A stretch of DNA of 30,416 nt from positions 1 through 30,416 of the IMG/VR virus record IMGVR_UViG_3300034072_002212. One strand, written 5' to 3'. Below the pieces are notes generated by a model, which did not search any database, was not told the origin of the DNA, and worked only from the letters and a program-made list of their open reading frames with translations. The translations under genes and the position numbers were made by a program. Below are positions 4,304 through 23,042 of the stretch, in pieces (position 1 is the stretch's first letter; each line of letters begins with the position of its first letter). The DNA is from a virus (taxonomy: Duplodnaviria; Heunggongvirae; Uroviricota; Caudoviricetes).

Positions 4304-5182
4304 TCAATAGCCGCCCATTGCGCGCCGGCGCTTGGTCATGCTGCTCTTGTTGTTTGCGGCGCGCTTGCTGCGGGCCGCAGCTTGGAAGGCCAAAAGCTCT
4401 GCTGCCAGCATGGGGTTGGTCCGCACATGATTGCGAGCTTCCTCACTGGCCTGAAGGATCAAGTCCAGCTTGACCTTGGCCAGACCGCCGCTGGGCGTCT
4501 TGACCATGTAGCCATAGAGCTTGGCATTGCGGGGGTTGCGACCAGCGACCTCGTAGATGCCGCCCTTGAGCTTGAGCTTCAGACCGATCAGCGGGTTGCT
4601 CTCTTCGGTCTTGGCCGCCATGCGCTGTTCCAGCAGCCCAGCGTCAACGAAATCCTTGCGCGGGTTGGTGTATGCGCTCGAGGGCACCCGATCATTCACG
4701 AACCGCTTGCGGAACCGCTTGTAGATCTGTCGGAAGAAGTAGCCGTGATTGCCCTCATAGCAGCCGATGCCGTCGAAGTAGAGGTCCTTGGGAAACTCGG
4801 GGCGCTCAACAAAGAGGGGATGGTTGCGACCGGCCTGCTTCATCGCGAACTGGATGATGTGGGCCAGTTCGTGGGCGACCAGGGCATCAACGGCCAGGGT
4901 CCAGTCAGTGGTCTCGAAACCACCGACCTCGGGCCAGGCATTGTAGGCCTTGTATTCCACATAAGCCTTGACCTCTTCGCGCAGGAAGTGGTAGCTCTGG
5001 AACTTGACCGTGTAGGCTCCCAGGCGCTGCGAGGCCTGACCCATGGGGCCCGAGGGCACGTCGACGATGCGGACCTTGAGGGGAAGCTTGCTGAACTTGA
5101 ATTCTTCCAGGGCCCACGCGACCTGCTCTGCTACGGCCTTGTCGACCTGTGCCTTAAACTGAGCTGCGGTGGGAAGGGCCAA
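4304..5182 (-). CDS. SprT-like zinc metallopeptidase (HExxH)
   Basis: LVAHELAHIIQ plus downstream NHGYFF; TTG start with RBS CAGGAG. Confidence 0.65.
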   Translation of the reverse strand: MALPTAAQFKAQVDKAVAEQVAWALEEFKFSKLPLKVRIVDVPSGPMGQASQRLGAYTVKFQSYHFLREEVKAYVEYKAYNAWPEVGGFETTDWTLAVDALVAHELAHIIQFAMKQAGRNHPLFVERPEFPKDLYFDGIGCYEGNHGYFFRQIYKRFRKRFVNDRVPSSAYTNPRKDFVDAGLLEQRMAAKTEESNPLIGLKLKLKGGIYEVAGRNPRNAKLYGYMVKTPSGGLAKVKLDLILQASEEARNHVRTNPMLAAELLAFQAAARSKRAANNKSSMTKRRRAMGGY

Positions 5183-5185
5183 GTT

Positions 5186-5244
5186 CGATCTCCTGTTTGT
5201 GCCTCGTTACCCAGACTTGGTAGCACAAACAGGTGAGCAGTCAA
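5186..5244 (-). promoter_or_regulatory. Sigma70-type promoter nested in an 11-bp inverted repeat that covers the RBS
   Basis: TTGACT(5244-5239)-N16-TACCAA(5222-5217); CCTGTTTGTGC (5233-5223, in the spacer) pairs with GCACAAACAGG (5202-5192, RBS). Confidence 0.7.
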
Positions 5245-5942: not shown

Positions 5943-6737
5943 ATGACTGACGCAAACAACATGCGCGGCTGGCTCAAGCTTTTTGAAGCCGCAGCACCAG
6001 ACTACGTGGGCCCCAAGGCCAGCGATACCGTTACCTACGCCGCAGAGCAAACCAAGGGTCAGATCACCAAGGTGACTGCATTCCTGAAGTCCTATGACTC
6101 GGCCCGCTATACCAATCTAGGCCGTAACCTGCTGAAGATTGAAACCCTCACCGAAGAGATCAAGATTCTGCAGCAGGAGACCAAGCAGGAAGCTCGCGAA
6201 CTCGTTGCGGACCTCTTCAACGCTGAAGACGCAGCGGTAACCCGTGTCGTTGATACTGTGGGTTTTGTGTTTCACATGAGCAAGGACCCTGCCCCAACGG
6301 CCTCTGTCAGCTATGCCAAAGTCCTCAAGGAACTCGAAGAGCATCTGACCCCAGAGCTTCTGAATGTCCTCGAGACCCTGAAAGCCAAGCACACCAGCGC
6401 GCCTGTTCAGAAGGCAGCTTCGCTAAAGGCAACCGACAAGGCTGCTCCAAAGACCGAAGAGAGCATCAATGAAGGTCTTGGCGATATGGCAGCAAAGCTG
6501 ACTGGCTTCTTCAAGAAGCTTTATCAGGATATCAAGGGCTGGGGCGTGAGCTACGACAGCAAGCTGGACCACCTCAAGGCCGAAATAGGCATGACTGAAG
6601 CCTGGGACGGCACCGGCGACGTCAGGGACGAAGTCGAGGGTTGCGAGCATGACTGGCACGAGGGCGTCGATGACGACGGTCACCTCGTTGAGCCACCATA
6701 TGATGTTTGCGTGAACTGCGGCGCAACGCGCCACTAA
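5943..6737 (+). CDS. Putative late/virion (internal head-like) protein
   Basis: Strong RBS and TAAATA box; LFE|A, INE|G and MTE|A resemble T4 gp21 prohead protease sites; CxH…CxxC at the C-terminus. Function is inferred. Confidence 0.6.
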   Translation: MTDANNMRGWLKLFEAAAPDYVGPKASDTVTYAAEQTKGQITKVTAFLKSYDSARYTNLGRNLLKIETLTEEIKILQQETKQEARELVADLFNAEDAAVTRVVDTVGFVFHMSKDPAPTASVSYAKVLKELEEHLTPELLNVLETLKAKHTSAPVQKAASLKATDKAAPKTEESINEGLGDMAAKLTGFFKKLYQDIKGWGVSYDSKLDHLKAEIGMTEAWDGTGDVRDEVEGCEHDWHEGVDDDGHLVEPPYDVCVNCGATRH

Positions 6738-12690: not shown

Positions 12691-13053
12691 TTAGGCCGCG
12701 ACTGTGTCAGCGGGATTTGAAACACGAGTGGGAAGATCCTTGCCGATACCTGTAGCAGCGTAGATCTCATCCCACTTGGTAAAATGGGCTTCACCCTCAG
12801 GGTGGTGTTCGATCCGTTCGCCGGTGAGCTTGACGCTCTTCACGCGGCGCATGTCATAACGACGCATCCCAGATTCACCGCCACTGACCTGATATCCGTA
12901 GAGGCTCTCCTTGCCGTTCTTGCAGCCGTAGATCCAAGGCTCGACGATGCGCTCGGTGGGCTCTTCGCTCGAGGAATTCTCGCTATGATAGCGAAAGCAG
13001 ACTGTGAGCCTGCTTTCTATTGCGTCGACAAGGGTGGGATGCTGAGGTGTCAT
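12691..13053 (-). CDS. Stand-alone WYL-domain protein (no HTH)
   Basis: AIESRLTVCFRY…RIVEPW…LYGYQ…RRYDMRRVKSV is a WYL pattern; GGAG before ATG 13053. Confidence 0.75.
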   Translation of the reverse strand: MTPQHPTLVDAIESRLTVCFRYHSENSSSEEPTERIVEPWIYGCKNGKESLYGYQVSGGESGMRRYDMRRVKSVKLTGERIEHHPEGEAHFTKWDEIYAATGIGKDLPTRVSNPADTVAA

Positions 13054-13085
13054 TTGGAACTCCACTTTGTTGCGTGGTAGAGCTA

Positions 13086-17731: not shown

Positions 17732-18166
17732 TCACTCGGTGATCTTGTTGTAATCATCGTCGATTTCGCCGTTCTCCTGCGCCTGCAGGATGCCGTCACC
17801 GATGATGTCGAGGTTGCTGTTGCTCATGCCGTGAAGCTTGTGGAACTCGATGATCTTCTCGCGATCATAGATCTCCTCGACGTCCACGTTGCTCCAGAAC
17901 TCTACGCTGGTCTCACTGTGCTTGCCCGCGAAGTCGCTGAAGTAAGCCGTTGTGCCCTCGAGAGCTGCCTTGATCTTGGCCCACTCTTCGCGAGTGTAGA
18001 TGACCTCGTCATAGAGGTCAGAGACACGACCATAGGTGAAACTGACCTTGACCAGCACCTTGTCCGCAAAGCGGAAGAGGTTCCGCTGAGCGTCGACCTC
18101 TTCCCAGGTCATTGCGAGGACACCGGCAACCACGATGCCCTCTGGTGTAACGCCTACATCAGCCAT
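17732..18166 (-). CDS. Acidic hypothetical protein (FAGKHSE motif)
   Basis: Clean ORF coupled to the upstream gene. Confidence 0.7.
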   Translation of the reverse strand: MADVGVTPEGIVVAGVLAMTWEEVDAQRNLFRFADKVLVKVSFTYGRVSDLYDEVIYTREEWAKIKAALEGTTAYFSDFAGKHSETSVEFWSNVDVEEIYDREKIIEFHKLHGMSNSNLDIIGDGILQAQENGEIDDDYNKITE

Positions 18167-19865
18167 CGACCGCTTCCTTCAAAGTCTCGAGATCCAGAAT
18201 GGTAGTCTTCAGCTTGCCATTGTAGGCCAGCTTGAACATCATCGCCGCGCCCTTGTTGGGGAACGTGACTGCGACCGAGCGGAAGTCAGTGGCCTTTTTA
18301 TAGGTCCCCTTCTTCATCTGGGTGCTCTTGATCGCAGCGTCGATGAGCGCCTGCTCCTCCTTGGAGATAGCGGTCGTGTCGCCGTGGTAGCCCACGTTGT
18401 CCAGCTTCTCCTCGTCGGTCTCAGTGAAGACTACCATGCCCTTCTGACTGTCGAGCAAGTTGGCCTTCTCGAGGGCCTTGTAGGCGGTGCGGACAGACGA
18501 GCCATACTTGACCGTCAGCTCACGCAATTCCCAAGACCGCTTGAACCAGTCGTGGAAGTCTTCGACCGGGCCGATTTCCTGGCGGGCCAGCTTGTCGAAC
18601 TTGACCAACTCCCAGTCCTCGGTCATGTGGAAGGTCTTGCCGCCGCCGCCCCACTCGGGCAGGGATTCGTCAGCGCCAGGCAGACCGTCATAGTAGCCAG
18701 TCATCATGAGGATGCTGGTCTTGGCCTTACCGAGGTTGTCCCACTTCTTGCCCTTCATGAACGTGTCGACCATCTCCTGATGATCAACACCATTGTCCTC
18801 GTTGGCGTCCTCTTCGTAGTGGTTCTTCCAGCGATAGTTGCCCTTGCTGTAGTCGGGCGCCAGGTAAAAGCGACCCGTGGGCTTGTGTCGCAGGCACCAC
18901 ACGTCGACCGTCGGAATGCTCTCGGCCTCGATGAAGTCCTTGATCATGCTGTATTCCAGACCGACCAGCTTGTCCTCGCCGTCGAACTGAACTTCGGCCA
19001 CGTTGCCGTATCGCTGACCGTGCCAACCGTTGGGGTTGAAGTAGGTATTGAACTTGCCGCGAACGGTGAAGATCTCACCGGCCTTGATGCTGCGGTAGAG
19101 CTTGGGCGTGTATTCGCCCAGGGTCTCCTGTGCGTTCTTCCGCATTGCCTCGCGAGCGGTGTACCAGTTCTGGTGCGCGTTGTTGTCGCAATGATTGTGG
19201 TCAGGGCGGGGATTAGCCTTGTCCCACTTGTCGATGTGGGCGTGATAGGCGCCGTTGGGAGCACCATAGTAGATGTCCACGTCTTGCGTGAACTTCCAGC
19301 GGCTCTTGTCGACCATCTGTTGACGCAGGTTGACCTTGGGCTGCTTCTTGCGCGCCTCAGGCTTTTCTGCAATCTCGAGGTGTCGAGCCTGAGCCCATTT
19401 GTTGTTCTTCGACCAGCCGACCAGGACATCATCCGGCGTATAGCGGGACTCACCCAGCTTTGTATATTCATCATGGATGGCGTGTTGAGCCTTGTTGTCG
19501 GCCTTCCACGCCTTCTCGAATTCCTTTTCTTTCTCGGGAAGGATCTCCCAGCGATCGTATGCCTGCTGGGTCCAGGTCTGACCGCCACGCGAATGAGTGG
19601 TCGCGGGATAGTGGACCTTGTGGCTGAGCGACTTCCGCAGCGTCTCGAACTCTTCCTGCAGGGCGCCGATACGACGCTGCCGCTCGTCCTTTTCCTGTTG
19701 GGTCAGCATGTCCTCTGCGCTAGGAAGCGCAACGTCGCTGATCTCTACGATCACTTCTTTGCTGGTCGTTTCCTTGGAAGTGCCATACCAGCGGCTGATC
19801 AGGGGAGTGCCCTTGGGCACCTTCATGTAGAGGCCCTTACGGAAGGGACTGTCGGTGAGGTCCAT
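18159..19865 (-). CDS. Large hypothetical protein (568 aa) ending in AMMFKLAY
   Basis: Start taken as ATG 19865 with RBS CAGGAG; the track's longer N-terminus overlaps the HNH gene. Confidence 0.75.
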   Translation of the reverse strand: MDLTDSPFRKGLYMKVPKGTPLISRWYGTSKETTSKEVIVEISDVALPSAEDMLTQQEKDERQRRIGALQEEFETLRKSLSHKVHYPATTHSRGGQTWTQQAYDRWEILPEKEKEFEKAWKADNKAQHAIHDEYTKLGESRYTPDDVLVGWSKNNKWAQARHLEIAEKPEARKKQPKVNLRQQMVDKSRWKFTQDVDIYYGAPNGAYHAHIDKWDKANPRPDHNHCDNNAHQNWYTAREAMRKNAQETLGEYTPKLYRSIKAGEIFTVRGKFNTYFNPNGWHGQRYGNVAEVQFDGEDKLVGLEYSMIKDFIEAESIPTVDVWCLRHKPTGRFYLAPDYSKGNYRWKNHYEEDANEDNGVDHQEMVDTFMKGKKWDNLGKAKTSILMMTGYYDGLPGADESLPEWGGGGKTFHMTEDWELVKFDKLARQEIGPVEDFHDWFKRSWELRELTVKYGSSVRTAYKALEKANLLDSQKGMVVFTETDEEKLDNVGYHGDTTAISKEEQALIDAAIKSTQMKKGTYKKATDFRSVAVTFPNKGAAMMFKLAYNGKLKTTILDLETLKEAVDG

Positions 19866-19866
19866 A

Positions 19867-19916
19867 CGATCTCCTGTTACTTTCAACCTGTGTAGCAGAT
19901 TGAGCAAACAGGACAA
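19867..19916 (-). promoter_or_regulatory. Promoter nested in a long hairpin covering the RBS
   Basis: TTGTCC-N16-TACACA; TCCTGTT…TCAATCTG-ctaca-CAGGTTGA…AACAGGA. Confidence 0.55.
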
Positions 19917-19958: not shown

Positions 19959-20387
19959 ATGCGCGAAAAACAGGCTGCTTCTATTGAAGAAACCAAAATC
20001 TATATTCAATCTAGGATTGTAAAAGATCCAGAAACTGATTGCTGGATTTGGTCCCAATTGAAGGACAAGAAAGGCTATGGTCTAGTTGATAGGGACACAC
20101 GGATCTTTCGTCTAGCCAAAACTACACATATCCATCGCGTATCCTACCTAGCATTCAAAGGCAAGTTAGAGGAAGGAATGGTTATTCGCCATCGCTGTAA
20201 TAACCATTCCTGTTGCAACCCTGTTCATCTAGAACAAGGAACTCAGCTTCAAAATATGGCTGACAAATATGAAGCTTTGGGTCAAAGGTCAGATGCTGCG
20301 CTAGTTGTTCTCAAACGTCAGCTGCAAGAATCTTTAGAAGCGGTCGAACAAGAACTCAGCCGACGAAAAAAGAGCCCCGGCGCATAG
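19959..20387 (+). CDS. Free-standing HNH homing endonuclease (HNH_3 type)
   Basis: CWIW…GYG…HRVSY…VIRHRCNNHSCCNPVHLEQGTQLQNMAD; AT-rich (17/60 GC at 19981-20040); TTGACG-N18-TAGAAT upstream. Confidence 0.85.
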   Translation: MREKQAASIEETKIYIQSRIVKDPETDCWIWSQLKDKKGYGLVDRDTRIFRLAKTTHIHRVSYLAFKGKLEEGMVIRHRCNNHSCCNPVHLEQGTQLQNMADKYEALGQRSDAALVVLKRQLQESLEAVEQELSRRKKSPGA

Positions 20388-20398
20388 CACCAGGGCCC
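20366..20398 (-). terminator. Intrinsic terminator of the putative sRNA
   Basis: GGGCCCTGGTGC-TAT-GCGCCGGGGCTC-TTTTTT (12-bp stem with G-U pairs). Confidence 0.8.
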
Positions 20399-20538
20399 AA
20401 GGAAAGCAGGAGATCGGTCTCAACTGCTATCGGAAACTCGGTTGCAAGGTTATTGTCGGGGCCCTATTGTCGGGCTGGCGATGGACGGCCATCCACACCA
20501 GTAAGTCCCTATCGCCGGGCCCTTATCGTCGCCTTGCC
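20366..20538 (-). ncRNA. Putative ~173-nt small RNA
   Basis: Lies between a promoter and an intrinsic terminator; no SD-led ORF; nested helices with two symmetric internal loops; anti-RBS segment. Confidence 0.65.
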
Positions 20539-20543
20539 ACACC

Positions 20544-20571
20544 TTGATAGCACCAGGAGACTTTGTGTCAA
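20544..20571 (-). promoter_or_regulatory. Sigma70-type promoter of the putative sRNA
   Basis: TTGACA(20571-20566)-N16-(TGc)TATCAA(20549-20544), same geometry as other promoters here. Confidence 0.7.
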
Positions 20572-20575
20572 CCGT

Positions 20576-20767
20576 TTAATTGAAGGTATGACGAGAAATT
20601 CCACCCAGGTGAATCAGCACGCGATTGGTGCCTTCCTCTGTCTCACTGAGTGCCCTGGGAGTGCCACCAAGAGTAGCAGAGGTATGGTCAATCCAGTCGA
20701 GGGCCTTGGCTTCGTCACCTAGGACGTCAGTGGCTTTCTCGACAATCTTCTGTAGGTTAGGGGTCAT
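20576..20767 (-). CDS. Orphan antitoxin, Xre/MbcA/ParS C-terminal toxin-binding domain (DUF2384-like)
   Basis: ATDVLGDEAKALDWI…LGGTP…TEEGTNRV…L matches the family pattern; no HTH and no adjacent RES toxin. Confidence 0.75.
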   Translation of the reverse strand: MTPNLQKIVEKATDVLGDEAKALDWIDHTSATLGGTPRALSETEEGTNRVLIHLGGISRHTFN

Positions 20768-20770
20768 GAT

Positions 20771-21262
20771 TTACTCCACGCGGAGGTCTGTGTTCCTAAC
20801 CGTTTTAGCATATTCCACCACGTCGCCGCACTTAAAAGATGACAAACGGCTCAAAGTATAATCACCAGGGATGAGCTTCGCAGGGACATCAAGTGCCTGG
20901 GCAAACTTCTCGCTCTTATCACCGGCATAGAATTCGCCATTGTCCTGTGACCACATGACCGTGTTACCCGACGGGTGATGGAGGATCCAACGCCAGCTGG
21001 TTTTCACATAGCAGGGCTCGCCTTCGGTGCGCTTGATCTGGATGTTGTAGAAGATCTGCGAGTCGCGCTTGATCTGAACAGTTTCCTGGCCGAATGGTTC
21101 TGCGCTCACGTAGCTACTGGTGATCACGGCACTAGCCGCGTTGTCACGGTCTTCCTGGATGCTTTTGTTGGTGCTGGCAATAACATTGGCGAGCATAACG
21201 TAAATGCCGAAGAGGCCAATAGCCACCACGCCAAGCTTAATGATAGTGCGAATCCAGTCCAT
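20771..21262 (-). CDS. Membrane-anchored protein with periplasmic beta domain
   Basis: N-terminal TM helix, two Cys; RBS GGAG; TAAATA upstream. Confidence 0.7.
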   Translation of the reverse strand: MDWIRTIIKLGVVAIGLFGIYVMLANVIASTNKSIQEDRDNAASAVITSSYVSAEPFGQETVQIKRDSQIFYNIQIKRTEGEPCYVKTSWRWILHHPSGNTVMWSQDNGEFYAGDKSEKFAQALDVPAKLIPGDYTLSRLSSFKCGDVVEYAKTVRNTDLRVE

Positions 21263-22989: not shown

Positions 22990-23042
22990 CGATCTCCTGT
23001 GATCCGTTGTCCTGTGTCTATGCGAAACAGGACCGAAGTCAA
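22990..23042 (-). promoter_or_regulatory. Promoter whose spacer arm can pair with a proximal arm or with the RBS
   Basis: TTGACT(23042-23037)-N16-TAGACA(23020-23015); GTCCTGT/ACAGGAC, alternatively TCCTGT with ACAGGA of the RBS. Confidence 0.6.

Follow-up and report, generated by a model that had tools for sequence, protein, structure and literature searches.

A conserved RNA of huge phages with two tandem loop-E-like internal loops, a possible protein docking handle with variable cargo

Introduction

What is an RNA whose 5' domain sets four near-identical heptamers face to face in two internal loops, and what might it do for the phage that encodes it? The question is raised by a locus in a 30,416-nt stretch of phage DNA (the window), the opening part of a 181.8-kb IMG/VR record whose completeness is estimated at 39%. 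The genes of the window are also present on a 468-kb contig, and its relatives are complete phage genomes of 436–465 kb, two of them with direct terminal repeats; the 'provirus' label of the IMG/VR record is therefore probably wrong, and the record is probably a fragment of a free huge phage. To our knowledge, huge phages are known mostly from metagenomes, and we know of almost nothing on their non-coding RNAs. Here we describe the fold, transcription signals and homologues of the RNA, compare its loops with loop E of 5S rRNA, and weigh the roles that it might have.

Results

Fold of the 5' domain

A preliminary description of the locus had read the minus strand as a hairpin in which the heptamers face each other in pairs between short helices. 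The minus-strand letters match that reading exactly over 20444-20537, and RNAfold returned the claimed architecture as both the minimum free energy (MFE) and the centroid structure, with GACGAUA, GGCGAUA, GACAAUA and GACAAUA paired off across two loops (Table 1). A 99-nt piece folded with -42.1 kcal/mol (z = -3.2), a value that 2 of 200 shuffled sequences reached, and the whole RNA, 178 nt as folded, with -78.4 kcal/mol (z = -3.5), a value that none of 200 reached. The rod scored 82.8 bits against covariance model R1 (E = 6e-18).

Heptamers of the form RRCRATA occur about 50 times per strand in the 181.8-kb record, near expectation, and the rod locus is the sole place in the record where at least three of them lie within 120 nt. 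The outer loop of the window measures 9x9 because C.A replaces both closing C-G pairs. Within the linker that follows the rod, GAGUUUCC is kept in most short forms of the RNA, and the P4 stem takes the forms GCAG/CUGC, GCGG/CCGC, GCUG/CAGC, GCCG/CGGC and GUGG/CCAC among the homologues.

Table 1. Features of the RNA locus and of genes named in the text (window coordinates)
Feature	Position	Strand	Description and basis
Promoter	20544-20571	-	-35 TTGACA (20566-20571), 16-nt spacer, extended -10 TGcTATCAA (20544-20552)
5' rod domain	20444-20537	-	P1, outer loop, P2, inner loop, P3, apical hairpin; MFE and centroid
P1	20532-20537 with 20444-20449	-	GCAAGG/CCUUGC; RNAfold
Outer loop, 5' strand	20523-20531 (heptamer 20524-20530)	-	c-GACGAUA-a; sequence
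P2	20517-20522 with 20459-20464	-	GGGCCC on both strands; pairing and covariation
Inner loop, 5' strand	20510-20516	-	GGCGAUA; sequence
P3	20507-20509 with 20472-20474	-	GGG/CCC; RNAfold
Apical hairpin	20475-20506	-	Variable; relatives can dispense with it
Inner loop, 3' strand	20465-20471	-	GACAAUA; sequence
Outer loop, 3' strand	20450-20458 (heptamer 20451-20457)	-	c-GACAAUA-a; sequence
Linker	20428-20443	-	AACCGAGUUUCCGAUA, single-stranded; sequence
Hairpin P4	20406-20427	-	GCAG-UU-GAGA-CCGA-UCUC-CUGC; stem covaries
RBS complement in P4	20407-20416		CGAUCUCCUG
Intrinsic terminator	20366-20398	-	Strong; 12-bp stem and U6, the hairpin at 20372-20398 ahead of the U6
RBS 10-mer, three sites	5186-5195, 19867-19876, 22990-22999	-	CAGGAGATCG
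HNH_3 endonuclease gene	19959-20387	+	Pfam PF13392, E = 1.3e-12; between RNA terminator and 568-aa promoter
568-aa protein gene	18159-19865	-	Conserved downstream neighbour with own promoter; homology
163-aa protein gene	20771-21262	-	Upstream; hydrophobic N-terminus, membrane-anchor-like
WYL-only protein	12691-13065		124 aa

Transcription unit

The position of the promoter predicts a transcription start at about G20537, which is the first base of P1. This promoter did not appear in a consensus scan because the last base of its -10 element is A. A TTGAC(A/G)-N16-17-TAnnnn box stands at the same place upstream of the RNA in 13 of the 15 homologues described below, the exceptions being L002, which has TTGATT, and L004, in which the box is shifted. 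A terminator hairpin and U tract follow 3' of the RNA in most homologues, and the distance from rod to terminator ranges from ~50 to >500 nt. In the window, the predicted RNA is ~172 nt long and runs roughly from 20537 to 20366 on the minus strand. As judged from these signals, the 5' domain probably belongs to an independently transcribed RNA, which has a promoter to itself and in most genomes a terminator as well. A search of sequencing runs returned no RNA run with the stretch, and the sole DNA run was a subsurface metagenome.

The kept order of promoter, structured RNA, intrinsic terminator and co-oriented genes could also be that of a cis-acting processive antiterminator of the HK022 put kind, in which the nascent 5' domain would modify RNA polymerase so that it reads through the terminator into the 568-aa gene and beyond. 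Like put, the phage RNA is structured, contains internal loops and is encoded immediately 3' of a phage promoter, with a terminator further on, and its variable terminator distance would suit a processive mechanism. However, the put RNAs are two separate hairpins, whereas the phage RNA is a single rod with two identical loops and has no sequence or Rfam relation to them. In most genomes a separate promoter for the downstream gene adjoins the terminator, an opposite-strand gene of 430 nt intervenes in the window, and the conserved linker and P4 would lack a role. Antitermination is, in our judgement, very improbable.

Homologues and conservation

Fifteen distinct homologues were found, one per genome, in uncultured phages of 436–468 kb that form a clade. 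Nine of them came from a pattern scan of viral, metagenome and genome collections that required three heptamers; the other six were located by synteny, upstream of homologues of the 568-aa gene that are 34–53% identical, and the heptamers were not used in finding them. Because the pattern behind the nine presupposed the heptamers, the case for conservation rests most cleanly on the six synteny-found sequences, to which an R1 search of the fetched contigs assigned E values from 5e-7 to 6e-21. Exactly one copy of the RNA is present in each of four complete genomes of 436–465 kb.

The R1 search did not find the RNA beside two distant, differently placed homologues of the 568-aa gene (L059 and L060), and in the cultured jumbo phages Phosso, Atu_ph07 and XaC1 it returned no more than two weak rows (E 0.27 and 0.5), both judged to be chance. 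Likewise, no match came from a BLASTN comparison of the locus with 50,697 phage records or from a search for an exact 24-mer in viral contigs, and a search for related loci via the 163-aa protein found none. Sinorhizobium phage Phosso contains a weak single-loop look-alike, GCAGCC-GACGATA-...-GACAATA-GGCAGC, at ~1505-1550 of locus L066 (448025-448076 of the phage; R1 E = 0.5); its apical stem is poor, and it was rejected as a homologue and put down to chance.

The preliminary description had tied its interpretation to conservation of the motif, and the motif is kept in the 15 homologues. The 5' heptamer of the outer loop is GACGAUA in 15/15. The 5' heptamer of the inner loop, GGCGAUA in the window, is elsewhere AACGAUA (11), GACGAUA (2) or GGCAAUA (1). 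On the 3' side, the inner loop has GACAAUA in 12 sequences including the window, and AACAAUA, GAAAAUA and GACGAUA in one each; the outer loop has AACAAUA (9), GACAAUA (5, including the window) or GGCAAUA (1). At 25 of the 28 loop positions, at least 13 of the 15 homologues share the same letter.

When the two strands of each loop are set against each other, every one of the 60 cells at positions 1/7' and 7/1' holds G.A or A.A, and positions 2/6' and 6/2' are A-U in 57/60 and G.U in 3/60. Positions 3/5' are C.A in 29–30 of 30 cells in both loops, and positions 5/3' are A.C in 29/30, with A.A once (L003). The central position 4 is G.A in 29/30; the single A.G, in the inner loop of L057, is the flip expected for a pair at a symmetry centre. 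Both loops measure 7x7 in 14 of the 15 homologues, with closing C-G pairs in 13–15 of the 15.

The helices that flank the loops vary in sequence and keep their pairing. Across the alignment, 87% of helix cells are paired, compared with 77% in shuffles (0 of 500 reach 87%), and shifted registers give 23–42% pairing. Twelve helix pairs show changes on both sides among the 15 homologues, and the covarying helices are P1, P2 and P3. In P2, 95.6% of cells are paired and four of six pairs have two-sided changes, the forms being GGGCCC, GAGCCC/GGGCUC, GCGCGC, GCGCGC/GCGUGC, GCACAC/GAGUGC and GGAACCC/GGGAUCC; P3 has the forms GGG/CCC and GAC/GUC. The loop centres are 13 bp apart in 13 sequences and 14 bp apart in the window and L057. 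The apical segment measures 4, 6, 32, 33, 47–50, 62 or 82 nt; these lengths show no multiples-of-three spacing, so the region is non-coding and the two-loop core is the constant part.

Since the four heptamers are direct repeats on one strand, they might instead be sites for a protein on DNA, or their arrangement might be due to chance. Compensatory changes keep P1, P2 and P3 paired, and the G.U and U.G cells of the helices become A/C mismatches on the opposite strand or in a cruciform; the structure is thus that of the RNA of this strand, not of DNA or an antisense RNA. Because the helices covary and G.U pairs occur, DNA-level repeats are excluded. A promoter and a terminator bracket the element, and the arrangement is kept in 15 genomes. 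Hardly any credence is left for a DNA-level feature or for chance.

A search of Rfam 15, which the preliminary description had named as a check, found no family over the 5' domain in the window or its relatives at gathering and E-value thresholds; the weak rows were only NsiR1 and suhB (E 0.17–0.26), both over the terminator hairpin. From the comparison of these sequences, the locus encodes a conserved, previously uncatalogued RNA of huge phages, and a chance arrangement is rejected.

Likeness of the loops to 5S rRNA loop E

Read antiparallel, each loop runs R.A, A-U, C.A, G.A, A.C, U-A, A.R between closing C-G pairs, and the strands have the frame C-[RACRAUA]-G. In bacterial 5S rRNA, loop E lies in the helix IV/V region, and its ribosomal protein bL25 also goes by the names L25, CTC and TL5. 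Loop E of 5S rRNA consists of seven non-Watson-Crick pairs, is stabilised by Mg2+, has its symmetry centre at G75-A101 and is the site of L25 (PMC1976436; PMC4408793). Among 30 Pseudomonadota, 5S rRNA loop E reads C-GAUGGUA-G / C-GAGAGUA-G in 25, and the variants in the same set are AAUGGUA (4) and GAUGAUA/GAAAGUA (2). The phage loops resemble loop E in their symmetric 7x7 layout, in C-G closure on both sides, in the frame C-[R A n R n U A]-G and in the central G.A at the pseudo-dyad. Their end letters would allow sheared R.A pairs and neighbouring reverse-Hoogsteen A.U pairs, a likeness in which the letters were compared and the geometry is deduced. Five of the seven pair types are common to both, and so are kinds of natural variant, namely A in place of G at position 1 and an A.A pair at 5/3' (phage L003).

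The pairs beside the centre differ, being U.G and G.G in 5S rRNA and C.A and A.C in the phage loops. The replacement of G.U by A.C is a classic isosteric swap for wobble pairs, but loop E pairs are not plain wobbles. Because the U.G/G.G feature beside the centre is absent, we call the loops loop-E-like and do not count them as members of the motif. The phage hairpin differs further in having two tandem loops, 13–14 bp apart, and the RNA has no other likeness to 5S rRNA: no hit to RF00001 reached the gathering threshold, and a scan of 20100-20900 gave none with E <= 10. From the letters, we infer that the non-canonical pairs of each loop are stacked as one unbroken helix whose groove has a distinctive shape. 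A simpler arrangement, with two isolated cis Watson-Crick A-U pairs on either side of a 3x3 loop, would also fit, and the three A-to-G changes at position 2, which give G.U, are compatible with this alternative.

Kink-turns and the sarcin-ricin motif (eukaryal loop E) also combine sheared G.A with Hoogsteen-type A.U pairs and serve as protein-binding platforms. Both are asymmetric, the former with a 3-nt bulge and the latter with a bulged G and AGUA/GAA, whereas the phage loops are symmetric 7x7 and bear neither signature; a search of the phage loops for the kink-turn signature found no 3-nt bulge and no tandem G.A.

The likeness to loop E raises the possibility of a 5S rRNA mimic. The RNA would imitate the loop E surface twice, carry an anti-RBS stretch in the window, and capture host bL25 (L25/CTC) or some other factor that recognises the shape of loop E; translation of the host or the phage would be retuned in this way, as part of a takeover by the phage. 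The loop E layout is matched, including the closing C-G pairs and the central G.A, and distantly related cultured jumbo phages have translation-factor genes beside their homologue of the 568-aa gene. Lu and Steitz are said to have found in 2000 that L25 recognises mainly RNA shape. On the other hand, pairs 3/5' and 5/3' differ from those of 5S rRNA, L25 also reads helix IV, which has no counterpart in the phage RNA, and Rfam gives no 5S match. In addition, bL25 is dispensable in E. coli, which counts against a clear benefit of its capture. We consider such mimicry improbable; if true, it would mean that a phage encodes an RNA mimicking elements of rRNA.

Covarying helices that enclose highly conserved internal loops, with a terminator downstream, would also be expected of a riboswitch-like element that senses a ligand or a metal, and loop E binds Mg2+ (PMC1976436). 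Against this, no conserved alternative (antiterminator) pairing with the terminator was seen, unrelated inserts of ~200–600 nt lie between domain and terminator, the downstream gene has its own promoter, and Rfam gives no match. The prospect of a sensor is remote.

Symmetry and protein recognition

The two-fold symmetry that had been claimed for the loops stands as an approximate pseudo-symmetry and not as a true dyad, since the 5' strand supplies the G of the central pair and the 3' strand the A, an asymmetry kept in nearly all genomes. The two strands of the loop-P2-loop unit are identical at 13–19 of 20–21 positions. P2 is an exact palindrome in five sequences and is non-palindromic in L058, L002, L003 and L010.

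The preliminary description had deduced sites for a dimeric protein from the symmetry. Strong sequence-specific selection on the loops, the pseudo-dyadic unit and the fixed spacing bear out part of that deduction, but symmetry alone needs no dimer because ribosomal loop E is bound by a monomer (bL25). Conserved loops, pseudo-dyad and fixed spacing fit the idea that some macromolecule recognises the loops, perhaps as a dimer or as a single protein bound twice.

In its full form, the earlier proposal placed a dimeric protein on each two-fold loop and made the RNA a sponge or decoy, with the WYL-only or KOW-like proteins of the window as partners. The pseudo-dyadic character of each loop and of the loop-P2-loop unit agrees with it, and the window does encode a WYL-only protein of 124 aa. 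Some WYL proteins are dimeric and nucleic-acid-binding. Support was found neither for the link to this protein nor for one to a KOW-like protein: the WYL-only gene lies 7.5 kb from the RNA and shows no co-localisation with it or other tie to it. The strand-specific central G/A asymmetry means that a loop is not a true dyad, the only binder of the loop E type known to us is the monomer bL25, and a single RNA gene with two sites would make a weak sponge unless the RNA were very abundant. A dimer-binding sponge is accordingly a reading that we hold to be quite unlikely.

A docking handle with variable cargo

The reading that we tentatively put first, at somewhat short of even chances, is that the two loop-E-like modules of the 5' domain form a docking handle for a putative protein. 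The rod would consist of three short Watson-Crick helices joined by two copies of a 7x7 loop-E-like module. With the modules 13–14 bp apart and a pseudo-dyad through P2, it would present a sequence- and shape-specific handle with one protein site on each module. The variable 3' part would carry the cargo, which in the window would be a stretch complementary to the RBSs of three phage genes. A near-invariant handle of fixed geometry, joined to very different 3' parts, is what would be expected of a scaffold that binds a protein and whose cargo varies. We infer protein docking by the modules from this pattern of sequence conservation.

A protein partner would not be needed if the rod were a stability cap that blocks 5'-end-dependent decay, its loops sparing a ~30-bp hairpin from RNase III. 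Such a cap would explain why the domain stands at the predicted 5' end of every homologue and precedes unrelated 3' parts. Protection from RNase III, however, needs mismatches and not particular letters, and 25 of the 28 loop positions are nearly fixed while the neighbouring protein falls to 34% identity; the fixed spacing of 13–14 bp would also be left unexplained. We regard a cap with no specific partner as unlikely, although it deserves to be kept in mind.

If the rod is a docking handle, its 3' parts are of interest as cargo. They measure ~80 nt in the window and ~330–600 nt in L057, L058 and L012, and no similarity was found among the long inserts of L007, L012, L057 and L058. In the window, CGAUCUCCUG in P4 is the exact complement of the extended RBS CAGGAGAUCG. 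The 10-mer CAGGAGATCG stands at three minus-strand RBSs; together with the complement in the RNA, this makes four matches, compared with 0.1 expected. A duplex between the 3' part of the RNA and the start of the downstream gene stands out in the window (z -2.5) but not in most homologues, a comparison in which the gene starts of a few loci were missed or misdetected. No enrichment of the heptamers or their complements was found across the 181.8-kb record, and trans targets complementary to the loops are therefore unlikely.

Two of the longer forms hold structured or tRNA-like sequence. L007 has an extra ~200 nt of structured non-coding sequence just 3' of the 5' domain (4852-5050) relative to its close relative L054 (2335-2345), with no Rfam match. 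In L012, which shares its 455-kb contig with L005, the ~560 nt that follow the 5' domain contain no ORF (2440-2960), and this insert includes two pieces like a tRNA T arm, GGTTCGATCC and GGGTTCGAATCCC. One of these has a possible 7-bp acceptor stem and CCA end, ~130 nt overall. ARAGORN called no genes in the window or in the loci with tRNA-like pieces, and Rfam calls nothing in the L012 insert.

With a predicted promoter and intrinsic terminator of its own, a short conserved single-stranded linker and, in the window, a 10-nt RBS complement, the RNA resembles modular trans-acting sRNAs of bacteria and phages, which couple a module for structure or protein binding to a seed and an intrinsic terminator. 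It differs from them in that its structured module is 5'-terminal, unlike the known Hfq or ProQ modules, and in the hundreds of extra nucleotides that some relatives carry. With 15 sequences, covarying helices and no Rfam match, the RNA is well supported as a new family. Its core is a tandem pair of loop-E-like modules, which we did not find described, and a search of the literature on the heptamers found nothing relevant. Should the modules indeed be a handle for a protein, the RNA would give a route to a new RNA-binding protein or to a new use of a ribosomal protein in infection. No cultured phage carries the RNA, so tests must begin in vitro or in surrogate hosts, and the very short forms in L057 and L058, with a core of 66 nt, are well suited to structural work.

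Neighbouring genes and candidate partners

The conserved downstream neighbour of the RNA encodes a protein of 568 aa, 56% identical to that of L007. It has 60 homologues (clusters), all on large phage-like contigs of up to 958 kb. Its AF2 model is confident (pLDDT 88.8) but has no recognisable RNA-binding fold and gave no Foldseek match to PDB folds; the sole structural match was a hypothetical protein of the Agrobacterium jumbo phage Atu_ph07. Genes for threonyl-tRNA synthetase and ribosome recycling factor adjoin the homologue of this gene in Sinorhizobium phage Phosso. The bL25 family (PF01386) was not found in five phage records in which controls were detected.

The last 16 nt of the HNH_3 endonuclease gene fall within the terminator stem of the RNA. 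This gene is absent at the corresponding site in all relatives, and there the promoter of the 568-aa gene lies within a few bases of the terminator, which makes the HNH_3 gene look like a recent insertion of a mobile endonuclease.

On the upstream side, the 163-aa protein has 33 invariant residues across 18 homologues, and its gene always follows genes for GSP_synth and DUF350. This gene order suggests that the protein is probably part of an envelope module and not of the RNA; given also its membrane-anchor-like N-terminus, it was dropped as a candidate partner. A 63-aa Xre/MbcA/ParS-C protein, antitoxin-like, is also encoded upstream and is missing beside the RNA in several genomes.

Elsewhere on the plus strand of the window, two adjacent genes (153-1340 and 1348-2586) encode proteins with collagen triple-helix repeats, and the product of a third (5943-6737) weakly resembles phiKZ-like internal head proteins, with a score under the Pfam cut-off.
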